Shown: positions 2,961-64,000, numbered from the stretch's first letter. The stretch: DNA of 64,000 nucleotides from Octopus vulgaris (GCA_951406725.2 OX597827.1:57474001-57538000), one strand, 5' to 3'. A program made the numbers and translations. Notes: a model not told the origin generated them from the letters alone.

Positions 2961-3600
2961 TAGAGGCGTAAAGTAGCTTGATTTAGCGTCCAAATCTACA
3001 AATTTGACGACTCCATTGATCTGATGAATACTTAAGTAACGTATACGACAGAGACATCTAACACCAGCGTGCAAATGGAGAAGTCGATATAGTCAGAAGC
3101 GAAATAGTGTAGCGATTTGATCATCATTGATACGCCACTGTCGTCTTGGAAACGTAAAAATCAATCCACCTATCCACTCACAAATGTCCGAACGCCTGGT
3201 ATATATGTACGTATTTCGCTTCCTTGGTCATGTGATGGTCAAGAAACGTACCACTCTGATCTGCTTATGGTATGGTATGGTTTGGTTTGGTATGGTATGG
3301 TATGGTATGGTATGGTATGGTATTGTATGCTTACACACGAAGTTACAAAGTAAAAAATAATCATTCACAGAATTATACACACACACACACACATATATAT
3401 AAACATATATACATATACATCTATATATGCATATGTGTATGCGTGTGTATGCATATATATATATATTTGCATATATTTATGCGTGTCTGCATGTATATGT
3501 ATATGTAGACATACACACACAAGCATGTATGTGTGTATGCATATGCATGTCTTTATATGAATATATGTATAACATTGTTGTGTGTGTGCCAGAATGTATG

Positions 3601-17259: not shown

Positions 17260-17605
17260 GTTCTTCTTCTTCTTCATCGACGTCGTTGTCTTCTTCTTCT
17301 TCTTCTTCTTCTTCTTCTTCTTCTTCTTCTTCTTCGTCGTCGTCTTCTTCGTCGTCGTCTTCTTCGTCTTCTTCTTCGTCGTCTTCTACTTCTTCTTCTT
17401 CTACTTCTTCTTCTTCCTCTTCTTTTTCTTTTTCTTCTACCTCTTCTTCTTCTTCCTCTTCTTTTTCTTTTCTCCTACTTCTTCTTCTTCCTCTTCTTTT
17501 TCTTTTTCTTCTACTTCTTCTTCTTCCTCTTCTTTTTCTTTTTCTTCTACTTCTTCTAACCCTACTTCTTCTTCTACTTCTTCCTCTTCTTTTTCTTTTT
17601 CTTCT

Positions 17606-17636
<31 letters not shown>

Positions 17637-17683
17637 TTTCTTTTTCTTCTTCTACTTCTTCCTCTTCTTTTTCTTTTTCTTCT

Positions 17684-17714
<31 letters not shown>

Positions 17715-17728
17715 TTTCTTTTTCTTCT

Positions 17729-17759
<31 letters not shown>

Positions 17760-17791
17760 TTTCTTTTTCTTCTTCCTCTTCTTTTTCTTTT

Positions 17792-17822
<31 letters not shown>

Positions 17823-17920
17823 TTTCTTTTCTTCTACTTCTTCCTCTTCTTTTTCTTTTTCTTCTTCTTCTTCTTCTTCTTCTCCTTCTCCTTCTTCTTC
17901 TCCTTCTCCTTCTTCTTCTT
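17260..17920. repeat. ~660-bp nearly pure pyrimidine (CTT)n-derived tract
   Basis: Direct reading. Confidence 0.95.
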
Positions 17921-37177: not shown

Positions 37178-37545
37178 ATGTTCAAACTGGTCAAATCCAG
37201 TTTCTAACACCTGAATGTTCAAACTGGTCAAATCCAGTTTCTAACACCTGAATGTTCAAACTGGTCAAATCCAGTTTCTAACACCTGAATGTTCAAACTG
37301 GCCAAATTCAGATTCTAACACCTGAATGTTCAAACTGGTCAAATCTAGTTTCTAACACCTGAATGTTCAAACTGGTAAAATCTAGTTTCTAACACCTGAA
37401 TGTTCAAACTGGTCAAATCCAGTTTCTAACACCTGAATGTTCAAACTGGTCAAATCCAGTTTCTAACACCTGAATGTTCAAACTGGTCAAATCCAGTTTC
37501 TAACACCTGAATGTTCAAACTGGCCAAATTCAGATTCTAACACCT
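37178..37545. repeat. Minisatellite, ~10 x 37 bp, inside a piggyBac-type MITE
   Basis: Unit ATGTTCAAACTGGTCAAATCCAGTTTCTAACACCTGA. Confidence 0.95.
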
Positions 37546-60073: not shown

Positions 60074-60149
60074 ATTGTAGCCCAATGTAAAAATATCAAA
60101 TGGCATTTCATTGGCAACCTGCAGCGTAACAAAATAAATAAATTACTTA
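60074..60149 (+). CDS. PLPBP: PLPBP coding exon 4 (gene continues beyond the window)
   Basis: IVAQCKNIKWHFIGNLQRNKINKLL with the WHFIG.LQ.NK motif; CAG/GTAAGT boundaries. Confidence 0.95.
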
Positions 60150-60288
60150 GTAAGTATACAGTTACATACTTAGATAAGTTTTGACCTGCATTGGCCCAGG
60201 CCATGTCTAACTTAATAGCACTTCCTGGATGTGGATGTGTGTGTGTGCAGAGGTGCACTCCAATGTGTTTGTACTTGTTTCCTCTTTT

Positions 60289-60400
60289 CCTTGTTTCAGT
60301 CATTTGATTGTGGCCATGCTGGAGCACAGCCCTTAGTTGAGTAAATCGCTCCCAGGACTTATTCTTTGTAAGCCTAGTACTTATTCTGTCGGACTCTTTT
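60289..60400 (-). mobile_element. Family A SINE 3' part, truncated at the satellite junction
   Basis: Matches family A up to ...CTCTTTTG, then switches to satellite sequence. Confidence 0.75.
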
Positions 60401-60821
60401 GTTGAAAATTTTCGTAAAATTATTGGGTAAAATTTTCAATGAAAATTTTCGAAAAATTTTTTGGGAAAATTTTCTGTGAAAATTTTCTAAAAATTTTTTG
60501 AGAAAATTTTCGAAAAATTTTGGGGGAAAGTTTCAAAAAATTTTCGGGTAAAATTTTCGGTGATTTTGGCACCATTGGTCTTCCATACTTTATGATTTTG
60601 GCACCTCTGGCCTTCCATACTTTGTGATTTTGGCACCGCTGGCTTTCCATACTTTGTAATTTTGGCACCGCTGGCATTCCATACTTTGGGGAAAATTTTC
60701 GAAAAATCTTTGGGTAAATTTATCGTTAAAAATTTTCGTAATATTTTCGTGGAAAATTTGGGGAAAATTTTCGGCAAAAGTTTTCGAAAAATTTTGGTGA
60801 AAATTTTTGGGGAAAATTTTC

Positions 60822-61030
60822 GGAATCCCGTATAACGAATATGCTCCATATGCTGATGTCTATAAACTTCGATATGGTCATAATTGTTAAGTGTAAAGTA
60901 GAATCTGGTGTATCGTTGATTGTGAGGCATCTTGACTGTAATATTAAACCAGAATTCACTCTATACAAAGAAAGCAGCAGAAGCAGCCACCTAAAATTCT
61001 ATTTTTAGCCATAACATCTATTTTTAGCTT
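60822..61030 (-). pseudogene. CRESS-DNA-virus-like ori plus 5' rep fragment, copy 1
   Basis: TAATATTAC (60938-60946), 7 nt, then ATG (60930) MPHNQRYTRFYFTLNNYDHIEVYRHQHMEHIRY. Confidence 0.6.
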
Positions 61031-61112
61031 GGGGAAAATTTTCGAAAAATTTTCGGGAAAATTTTCGAAAAATCTTTGGGGAAAATTTGTGGTGAAAATT
61101 TTCGAAAATTTT

Positions 61113-61312
61113 CGGAAACCCATATAACGAATATGCTCCATATGCTGATGTCTATAAACGTCGATATGGTCATAATTGTTAAGTGTAAAGTAGAATCTGG
61201 TGTATCGTTGATCATGAGGCATCTTAACTGTAATATTAAACCAGAATTCACTCTATACAAAGAAAGCAGCCACCTAAAATTCTATTTTTAGCCATAACAT
61301 CTATTTTTAGCT
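61113..61312 (-). pseudogene. CRESS-like ori plus 5' rep fragment, copy 2
   Basis: TAATATTAC (61230-61238); ATG 61222; MPHDQRYTRFYFTLNNYDHIDVYRHQHMEHIRYMGF. Confidence 0.6.
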
Positions 61313-62150
61313 CGGGAAAATTTTCAAAAAATTTTTGGGGAAAATTTTTGATGATTTTGGCACCTCTGGCTTTCCATACTTTGTGATTTTGGCAGCGCTA
61401 GCTTTCCATACTTTATGATTTCGGCACCACTAGGTATCCATACTTTGGGATGTTGGCACCACTGATTTTCCATACTTTGGGGAAAATTTTTGTTGAAAAT
61501 TTTCGTAAAATTATTGGGTAAAATTTTCTAAAATTTTTTGGGAAAATTTTCGGCAAAAATGTTCCAAAAATTTTCGTAAAATTTTTGGGGAAAATTTTCC
61601 AAATATTTTTAGGTAAAATTTTCGGTGAAAATTTTCTAAAAATTTTTGGTGTAAAATTTTTGGTGAAAATTTTGGAAAAATTTTTGGGTAAAATTTTCAG
61701 GTAAAATTTTTGGTGATTTAGGCACCATTGGTCTTCCATACTTTATGATTTTGGCACCTCTTGCCTTCCATACTTTGTGATTTTGGCACCGCTGGCTTTC
61801 CATACTTTGTAATTTTAGCACTGCTGGCTTTCCATACTTTGGGGAAAAATTTCGGAGAAAATTTTCGAAAAATCTTTGGGTGAATTTTTCGGCAAAAGTT
61901 TTTGAAAAATTTTGGGGGAAAATTTTCGGAATCCCATATAACGAATATGCTCCATATGCTTATGTCTATAAACGTCGATATGGTCATATTTGGTCATATT
62001 TTTAGCCATAACATCTATTTTTAGCTCGGGGAAAATTTTCGAAAAACTTTTGGGGAAAATTTTCGATGGAAATTTTCGAAAAATTTTTGGGTAAAATTTG
62101 TGGTGAAAATTTTCGAAAATTTTTGGGTAAAATTTCCAATGAAAATTTTC

Positions 62151-62360
62151 GGAAACCCATATAACGAATATGCTCCATATGCTGATGTCTATAAACGTCG
62201 ATATGGTCATAGTTGTTAAGTGTAAAGTAGAATCTGGTGTATTGTTGATCGTGAGGCATCTTAACTGTAATATTAAACCAGAATTCACTCTATACAAAGA
62301 AAGCAGCAGAAGCAGCCACCTAAAATTCTATTTTTAGCCATAACATCTATTTTTAGCTCG
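62151..62360 (-). pseudogene. CRESS-like ori plus 5' rep fragment, copy 4 (copy 3 at 61928-62030 is internally deleted)
   Basis: TAATATTAC (62267-62275); ATG 62259; MPHDQQYTRFYFTLNNYDHIDVY. Confidence 0.6.
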
Positions 62361-64000
62361 GGGAAAATTTTCGAAAAATTTTTGGGGAAAATTTTTGAAA
62401 AGTTTTTGGGTAAAATTTTCGATAATTTTGGCACCACTGGCTTTCCATACTTTGTGATTTTGGCAGCGCTATCTTTCCATACTTTATGATTTCGACACCG
62501 CTAGGTATCCATACTTTGGGATGTTGGCACCACTGATTTTCCATACTTTGGGGAAAATTTTTGTTGAAAATTTTCGTAAAATTATTGGGTAAAATTTTCT
62601 AAAATTTTTTGGGAAAATTTTCTAAAAATTTTTTGAGAAAATTTTCGGCAAAAATGTTCCAAAAATTTTCGTAAAATTTTTGGGGAAAATTTTCCAAATA
62701 TTTTTAGGTAAAATTTTCGGTGAAAATTTTCTAAAAATTTTTGGGTAAAATTTTTGGTGAAAATTTTAGAAAGATTTTTGGTGAAAATTTTGGAAAAATT
62801 TTTGGGTAAAATTTTCAGGTAAAATTTTTGGTGATTTAGGCACCATTGGTCTTCCATACTTTATGATTTTGGCACCTCTTGCCTTCCATACTTTGTGATT
62901 TTGGCACCGCTGGCTTTCCATACTTTGTGATTTTGGCAGCGCTATCTTTCCATACTTTATGATTTCGACACCGCTAGGTATCCATACTTTGGGATGTTGG
63001 CACCACTGATTTTCCATACTTTGGGGAAAATTTTTGTTGAAAATTTTCGTAAAATTATTGGGTAAAATTTTCAGCAAAAATGTTCGAAAAATTTTTGCGG
63101 AAAATCTTCGTAAAATTTTTGGGAAAAATTTTCTGTGAAAATTTTCCAAAAATTTTTAGGTAAAATTTTCTAAAAATTTTCTGGTAAAATTTTTGGTAAA
63201 AATTTTACAAAGATTTTTAGGTAAAATTTTGGAAAAATTTCTGGGTAAATTTTCGAAAAATTTTGGGGTAAAATTTTCGGTGATTTTGGCACCATTGGTC
63301 TTCCATACTTTATGATTTTGGCACCTCTGGCCTTCCATACTTTGTAATTTTGGCACCGCTGGCTTTCCATACTTTGTAATTTTGGCACCGCTGGCTTTCC
63401 ATACTTTGGGGAAAAATCTTTGGGTAAATTTATTGTTGAAAATTTCTGTAAAATTTTCGATGGGGAAAACTATTTTTTTCAAGTATAATATATCTGATGG
63501 TGTTTCATTAGATTACATATTTTTACAGCTGCATGTCCTGTCTAACTGCTATGCACCAAACAATGGTGATACAACTGACAAATCTATCCAGATTAAAATC
63601 ATATAAATATCTGAAATGAATCGATGTTGTTCATTAAGATTATAAATTTTCAGGCTATTAACCTTTCTTTTGAGATGAAAAATCTTTCGTCTATAAATAT
63701 GAGATCAATAGTCTGCAAAATACTAATCTTATTACTTGGTCATTAGTACTTGTAGCAGAGCCTAAGCTCACTGGAAGTCTCACTGTCTGCTTGCTGCTTG
63801 ACAAATATTTATCAGTTCAATTTTTCATATGATTACAGCAGTGGGATATTCCGCTCTGTGGTAATTGCTCACAGTAATCTCAATAGAGCTGTTGAACGTT
63901 AAGTAGTGTTTTGACTGTGAACACAATGCAGTGCTAATGAGAAGCTATGAATTGCTATCCTCTCAGCTGGTCATCACAGCTCTCAATAGCTTTGATGAAG

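Follow-up and report, generated by a model that had tools for sequence, protein, structure and literature searches.

What is a fragment of a viral replication gene doing in an intron of an octopus gene, and was it multiplied there by a virus or by its host? The fragment lies in a 64,000-nucleotide stretch of Octopus vulgaris (GCA_951406725.2, OX597827.1:57474001-57538000; the whole stretch is henceforth referred to as the window), within a 3.1-kb satellite array in an intron of a PLPBP/YggS-like gene. The array is built from three modules: a AAAATTTT repeat (A), a 32-bp minisatellite (B) and a cassette of ~210 bp that encodes the start of the replication-associated protein (Rep) of a CRESS DNA virus (circular, single-stranded and encoding a Rep). 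We consider it probable that the TATA region and first 36 codons of a viral rep gene survive in the cassette as a neutral fossil, a passenger of the satellite spread by host repair and recombination.

Cassettes in the window

The array and its cassettes, with untranslated region abbreviated as UTR, are:

60400..63469 (about), no strand: compound satellite array, intronic in the PLPBP/YggS-like gene, of A module, 32-bp B module and rep cassettes
60821..61029, minus: cassette 1, with upstream module, TATA-like box, 5' UTR and 36 rep codons (60930-60823)
61113..61314, minus: cassette 2, with 36 codons at 61222-61115 and a 9-bp deletion upstream
61927..62028, minus: cassette 3, internally deleted, lacking TATA, UTR, start codon and motif I
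62150..62360, minus: cassette 4, with 36 codons at 62259-62152

Three cassettes are thus whole and one is internally deleted, and all four lie on the minus strand. The 36-codon frames of the whole cassettes continue into AAAATTTT satellite. The original prediction, made from the window alone, had described three intact copies and one deleted copy of a ~210-bp cassette in a 3.1-kb array, with a minus-strand reading of 36 residues in each intact copy that then runs into satellite. The positions of the four cassettes agree with this description, and the three frames read exactly so.

Identity of the cassette peptide

The peptide of cassette 2 is identical at 21 of 34 positions (62% over 34 aa) to a complete Rep nuclease domain encoded elsewhere in the genome, on C14 (P0001), and at 19 of 37 to an unnamed database protein (P0007). 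When the cassette DNA was aligned to the C14 rep, none of 400 shuffles did as well. We also searched the window with a Rep profile built from 148 of 153 database Reps, from which the octopus-like P0001, P0007 and P0035 were left out. The three cassette frames were the best 3 of 2127 six-frame segments (E 1.4e-4 to 5.8e-4; next 1.2), scoring 20.7-21.6 bits against at most 7.3 bits for shuffles (1000 each, 949-970 scored). Pfam gave no match to the 37-aa cassette pieces, so the profile comparison proposed in the original prediction succeeds with the Rep profile, which ranks the three frames first, and fails with Pfam alone.

Judged by these similarities, the cassette peptide is the N-terminus of a CRESS-virus Rep with motif I, and the cassette derives from a Viral_Rep (PF02407) nuclease. 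The earlier assignment of the FTLNN peptide to the Rep motif I region is borne out by the identity to P0001 and by the independent profile. An active CRESS enzyme would hold motifs II and III and a superfamily 3 (SF3) helicase in one gene. The cassettes end at codon 36-38 of rep, without motif II or III, and the array encodes no active enzyme, as had been expected.

A genome-wide family of neutral copies

Matches to the cassette in the genome numbered 60 among those listed at the DNA level (40 of 190 candidates scored) and 126 at the protein level (150 of 173 candidates scored), and a cassette 20-mer had 132 genome matches versus 4 for a control. The 53 loci that we fetched hold at least 238 distinct cassette pieces in at least 35 clusters on 13 contigs. 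The sequence is endogenous, as predicted, and multi-copy, and source labels identify the host as an octopus. The array is intronic, as had also been claimed, and is not a single satellite but belongs to a set of dispersed clusters. The same 3' end is reached by 203 of the 238 pieces, which points to one capture.

The shared end bears on the reading that each array is an independent integration of concatemers from one virus that itself carried the A and B repeats. Repeated entry is the usual interpretation of multi-copy CRESS fossils in the salmon louse and Varroa (Liu et al. 2011, PMC3198968; statements from this and all other cited papers refer to the excerpts of them that were available). 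In the octopus, one break is common to all copies, and they are accompanied by no further viral gene. Modules A and B show no similarity to octopus viral fossils or to the Rep profile; the exact B unit was absent from viral and metagenome contigs, and the exact cassette start from viral contigs. We regard repeated integration as highly improbable.

Evolutionary rates and the phylogeny were computed on an earlier set of 145 cassette pieces. The ratio of nonsynonymous to synonymous polymorphism (pN/pS) was 1.0 over the 98 copies spanning codons 1-35 (54 open, 21 frameshifted, 14 with stops and 9 without ATG), which indicates that the cassette evolves neutrally. The tree of 94 near-whole copies is star-like, with bootstrap values not fully settled. 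Copies differ by 9.4% within arrays, by 9.0% between arrays of one contig and by 10.7% between contigs, and the nearest neighbour lies in the same array for 47 of 86 copies. The shape of the tree and the similar divergence within arrays and between contigs argue for a burst. All eight near-whole copies on C14 (five places, 57.5-70.7 Mb, the window's three included) form one clade (99/95) that extends over 13 Mb, and the C14 cassettes differ by 2-13%.

The 129 satellite loci searched (683 kb, with overlap) yielded neither capsid nor helicase, no motif II or III and no nonanucleotide in a stem-loop. Five apparently long Rep matches reached residue 70-89 at 35-45% identity; the one examined was a cassette continuing into satellite. 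The original prediction had suggested looking for further and for longer copies: the former abound, and no motif II or III stands beside the cassettes in these loci.

Virus relics elsewhere in the genome

Two insertions identify the virus lineage:

L031:1383-1794 (C14:64.338 Mb): rep piece, an HUH nuclease domain in a Merlin/ISXO2-like transposase copy
L186:1247-3255 and L188:4803-7125 (C15:38.11 Mb): CRESS-virus insertion of more than unit length, from origin to origin, reached via P0035

The genome search with PF02407 returned one complete nuclease domain, at C14:64.34 Mb (P0001, 104 aa; 81.6 bits against a cut-off of 26). It has the motifs FTLNN, HLQG and YCQK (motif scheme from PMC5923481, which gave no family assignment), and it matches the circovirus and nanovirus Rep structures PDB 2hw0, 7kii and 6h8o with E 1.8e-14, 2.2e-14 and 2e-9. 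The C14 Rep is about 40-50% identical to the nearest viral contigs and proteins. The rep piece, 412 bp in place of about 40 bp of the transposase copy, illustrates the mode of capture. We rejected the possibility that this Rep belongs to the Merlin element, as other Merlin-like copies show the empty site. Less than 4 kb from the piece are two parvovirus NS1-like helicase fragments (PF01057, 52 and 28 bits; L033:1154-1693 and 3014-3379). They sit among tandem Merlin-like copies, possibly as a cluster of viral and transposon fragments.

On C15, a second origin copy lies about 2.1 kb from the first, and the origin has a 9-bp stem with a TAGTATTAC loop. Over about 165 nt, six substitutions and a single indel of 11 nt separate the two copies (about 4%), and a genome search found the origin sequence only at these two copies. 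The rep between them is broken by an internal deletion and retains an SF3-helicase-like part. On the opposite strand is an arginine-rich open reading frame (ORF) that is likely a capsid gene. Pfam found nothing in this ORF; Atlas placed it with Cressdnaviricota clusters (0.93), one of which has Circo_capsid in 79% of its members, with a recognition value below threshold. Database proteins that match two of the viral ORFs carry an Octopus vulgaris label.

Helicase-like pieces occur at eight places in the genome (weakest E 2e-6 and 2.4e-4), and relatives of the opposite-strand ORF at six, four of them new. Together with C14, these amount to up to 13 places with virus-related pieces. A genome search with PF00910 had recovered none of 24 candidates. 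That was a false negative, because a natural query later brought up helicase pieces. An intact Rep, with whole nuclease and helicase in one gene, was not found in the assembly among the best-scoring candidates that were scored. The Rep-related pieces are the nuclease alone on C14, the internally deleted gene on C15 and helicase-only pieces elsewhere.

At L191:481-2645 (C11:25.61 Mb), convergent likely-capsid and helicase fragments adjoin an ORF that we take to be G-protein-coupled-receptor-like. The helicase has an open frame and shares 88% identity with a protein annotated in O. bimaculoides; by this similarity the C11 fragments may be an old insertion common to both octopus species. C31 carries two likely-capsid ORFs (L201:1333-2094 and L203:1312-2055), both open, about 250 aa long and nearly identical, at a distance of 3 Mb, and there is another on C12 (L202).

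Satellite modules and mode of spread

The other modules of the array, and an element that travels with some cassettes, are:

62547..62834, no strand: A module block of 12/24/37-bp AAAATTTT repeats, 20% GC, rich in palindromes; the remainder of the array consists of such blocks
60560..60688, no strand: 32-bp B block
61347-61479, 61713-61841, 62425-62550, 62831-63023 and 63283-63408: further B blocks
L076:5100-5494, L077:4480-4853 and L062: element resembling a miniature inverted-repeat transposable element (MITE), roughly 370 bp with long inverted ends, at the cassette 5' end

Arrays of this kind behave as a dispersed euchromatic satellite: they are short, occur at many loci, vary in their ends and exchange sequence from locus to locus. 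Their ends fall anywhere within A, B or cassette. A scan of the flanks over 41 intervals gave one convincing duplication, of 14 bp with shared bases at both joints; the rest were short or low-complexity overlaps. The 14-bp direct repeat at L228:1454-1697, with shared bases at both joints, flanks a B-only insert of 244 bp. Fold-back inversions are frequent, and one of them has its switch point within the cassette, at an imperfect inverted repeat. The window array contains 56 perfect 10-bp palindromes, whereas stretches of the same length in the remaining window contain about 3. The MITE-like insert is common to loci on C1, C3 and C7 (733 bp, 92% between two of them), which indicates that chromosome-resident copies acted as templates. 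The MITE-bearing loci all lie less than 8 Mb from the contig start, and two adjoin another tandem repeat. Elsewhere (L072:7438-10000 and L073:1-5500), A, B, SINE-like (short interspersed nuclear element) and microsatellite DNA make up a higher-order tandem unit of ~1.8 kb.

We looked for a viral source of the modules themselves. Neither A nor B gave a signal above shuffles against rep or origin DNA, and the far-upstream part of the cassette gave three weak matches (12-20 of 400 shuffles) in 24 comparisons; these candidates were rejected. The B module had 317 genome candidates, and 14 of 16 fetched places had no cassette within the 3.2-kb locus.

The modular inner tandem repeats and inverted blocks resemble foldback- and Helitron-derived satellites, and the dispersal across many contigs would suit a mobile element. 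The arrays might be what is left of a non-autonomous transposon (foldback, Helitron/Helentron-like or Replitron-like) that had A and B as inner repeats and captured a rep fragment. Such elements have fixed termini. Across the 41 intervals, the array ends showed no shared termini, no terminal inverted or direct repeats and no regular target duplications, and matches between flanks were common octopus repeats, local duplications or one MITE lineage. A SINE-like repeat considered as an insertion target was touched by 2 of 42 array edges against 3.9% expected, the chance level. No transposase or further Rep part was detected in the 129 satellite loci with viral-protein queries, other transposases not being searched. 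Replitrons (PMC10288648) are likewise repeats tied to a CRESS-related HUH Rep; they have their own transposase, end in short direct repeats, and reports of them come from plants, algae and protists. The octopus Rep, in contrast, has the score of an ordinary Viral_Rep, and its relatives include SF3-helicase and likely-capsid pieces; since the arrays also lack termini, we rejected the array as a Replitron. A transposon origin in general is improbable.

The array ends, fold-backs, palindromes and MITE-like insert are compatible with repair guided by microhomology and with template switching, whether or not circles were excised. Under the host-driven account that we prefer, a virus of the C14/C15 lineage would have infected germ cells, and a rep fragment would have been captured at a break. 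A single joining event likely linked the fragment to the palindromic, AT-rich satellite, which likely carried it along as it spread. The unit may have been multiplied by slippage and unequal exchange, and also by template switching for which the abundant short palindromes served as primers. Breaks at other sites may have received random array pieces, copied either off chromosomal templates or off circles that arrays had released. There would have been one main burst and, later, a local wave on C14 from which the intronic array of the window arose; decay since then would have proceeded with little homogenization between copies.

The nonanucleotide and possible replication in trans

Could Rep itself have amplified the cassette? 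The original prediction held that the cassette contains a CRESS-like origin. The candidate nonanucleotide is:

60938..60946, also 61230-61238 and 62267-62275, minus: TAATATTAC 9-mer, a derived variant without a stem, ending 7 nt 5' of the ATG

The 9-mer is present in each whole cassette of the window, in the 5' UTR and downstream of the TATA-like box. Among 159 copies, 75 have TACTACTAC at this place, 10 have TAATATTAC and 13 have any NANTATTAC, and the tree nests the TAATATTAC copies inside the TACTACTAC copies, making TAATATTAC a derived minority variant. Folding gave z-scores of +1.07 and +0.34 for the cassette and -3.14 and -4.51 for the C15 origin; the best perfect stem at 92 NANTANTAC sites (92 kb of arrays) has 4 bp. 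A CRESS origin has its nonanucleotide in the loop of a stem of ~9-11 bp, upstream of rep. In this lineage, the stem-loop origin on C15 is 89 nt upstream of the ATG, and it lies upstream of the TATA box, 45-158 nt before the ATG, in 23 of 23 viral contigs examined (68-85 nt in 19), these having been picked from 80, among those that match from residue 1. The claimed origin is therefore not supported: the cassette has no hairpin, and its 9-mer is a minority variant in the 5' UTR rather than at the lineage's origin site. The C14 rep has a similar run, GACTACTAG, at the same place in the UTR, and the 9-mer has therefore likely been inherited as part of the UTR.

Amplification by Rep in trans, also raised by the original prediction, does not depend wholly on a hairpin. 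A defective or hybrid replicon may have been served by Rep during germline infection, with nicking at the UTR 9-mer or at an origin since lost, and its concatemers, with template switches, captured at breaks. The star-like burst of multi-unit arrays would suit such a process, as would the integration of virus relatives at so many places. Several further observations tell against the host-driven account, and the first two of them also lend Rep in trans weight. The 9-mers of 102 of 159 copies fit NANTANTAC, keeping T-4, T-1, A+1 and C+2, and in vitro Reps need no stem to cut such sites, T-4 and T-1 being what they mainly prefer (PMC7826260). A clade of 13 copies (94/80, weakly supported), which includes the youngest C14 copies, has the canonical NANTATTAC through two of its few near-fixed point differences, a link to the young clade that we noticed after the fact. 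The virus lineage was entering the germline near that time, judging by the divergence of the C15 origins (about 4%) and of the C14 cassettes. No empty-site allele of the array was seen in the sequencing runs (run X2 covers the flank only). Finally, B units diverge by 6.5% in cassette-free arrays and by 11.3% in cassette-bearing arrays (a biased sample); cassette-free B arrays are thus not more diverged and do not show a satellite older than the cassette.

Virus-host minicircles of BCTIV (beet curly top Iran virus; PMC6293997) provide a precedent for replication in trans. Like the octopus units, they join a viral regulatory region and gene start to AT-rich non-coding DNA. They are episomal and retain a stem-loop origin, as trans-replicated defective or hybrid minicircles do; the octopus arrays are integrated, and the satellite loci gave no stem-loop. 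The truncation points of the cassettes show no peak at the position where the 9-mer would be cut, and no array end marks a nick site. Copies with a broken 9-mer (the TTCTACTAC clade) also moved between loci. Cassette-free arrays are common, and the assembly yielded no intact Rep. Together with the position of the lineage's origin and the inherited UTR, these findings leave Rep in trans as a possibility to be kept in mind, though unlikely. A stronger form of it, in which a selfish, origin-poor CRESS parasite made of viral promoter, rep start and palindromic repeats was nicked by Rep at its stem-less 9-mer in germline infections, was selected toward the canonical nick site in its youngest lineage and founded an animal satellite family, seems doubtful. 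We favor host repair and recombination over Rep in trans because of the ragged array ends, the fold-backs, the co-copied MITE and the one-contig clade.

The array and its host gene

60074..60151, plus: host PLPBP exon 5' of the array, which holds the WHFIG motif
60280..60401, plus: piece of a SINE-like repeat abundant in octopus, which the left end of the array truncates; a few bases are shared at the joint

The host gene, earlier assigned to PLPBP, is PLPBP/YggS-like: four of five exon pieces tested match TIGR00044, each below the whole-protein cut-off. The WHFIG exon was too short to match; we presume WHFIG to be a YggS motif. The array is flanked by this exon, ending at 60151, and by another ~1.6 kb past the window end.

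A misassembly would have undone the original prediction. Single contigs span the right junction in five of seven sequencing runs (three species labels, four studies), and the junction is therefore not a misassembly and is present in several samples, although one of these runs may be the source of the assembly itself. No contig spanning the left junction was among those listed. The remainder of the SINE-like repeat is absent from the right end of the array, which suggests that target DNA was lost, and loose ends fall at 60401.

The window also contains a 37-bp minisatellite unrelated to the array (37178-37545, 9.9 copies, 96% matches) and a TTC repeat tract of 660 bp (17261-17920).

Comparison with known systems

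We compared the octopus arrays to previously described systems. In content they resemble Nicotiana GRD2/3/5/53 (geminivirus-related DNA) and yam EGV1 (PMC5014472), in which a truncated, neutrally decaying single-stranded DNA virus rep is present in many tandem copies in the host. The octopus cassette shares the tandem, truncated and neutral rep. GRD units carry a v-ori-like (viral origin) intergenic piece and cluster on one or two chromosomes. Unlike GRD, the octopus cassette has no stem-loop and 36 codons only, and lies within satellite modules that do not look viral, in clusters dispersed over an animal genome. The GRD architecture of origin plus 5' rep, invoked in the original prediction, thus fails for want of an origin.

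Circovirus- and nanovirus-like rep fossils have been described in invertebrates including Aplysia, with near 60 copies in the salmon louse and Varroa (PMC3198968). The octopus case is alike in being a CRESS rep fossil in an animal genome. It exceeds these copy numbers, and whereas those cases are read mostly as separate invasions or segmental duplications, the octopus has more than 200 pieces from one break, multiplied in satellite.

In mode of spread, the arrays resemble the Rsp-like and 1.688 satellites of Drosophila (PMC7403614) and Cast1-9 of Tribolium (10.1101/2023.04.24.538079): short dispersed arrays, bursts, junctions with microhomology, a rare unit carried along by a commoner satellite, and local spread along one chromosome. 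Microhomology-guided repair with template switching, with or without circles, has been proposed for the spread of the Rsp-like repeats (PMC7403614) and of the Cast satellites (10.1101/2023.04.24.538079). Unlike in these systems, the rare octopus unit is a recognizable virus gene fragment; circles, hypothetical in the octopus, have been shown in them. Our search of the open-licence literature, which does not show absence from print, found no description of CRESS fossils in octopus, cephalopods or molluscs, or of a satellite with this cassette.

Implications

The relics are evidence, in fossil form, that cephalopod germ cells are infected by a CRESS-virus lineage that is unclassified. This rests on the origin-to-origin insertion with rep and likely capsid, on the related pieces at up to 12 further places and on the 88% identical O. 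bimaculoides protein. Copy number is misleading here, because more than 200 rep-like matches represent one capture multiplied in satellite and not many infections. With an alignable tag of 200 bp in each copy, the spread of a satellite, including its burst, local wave and fold-backs, can be traced at single-copy resolution. With this family one can also test cleanly whether the birth of a satellite in an animal can be driven by a viral Rep.

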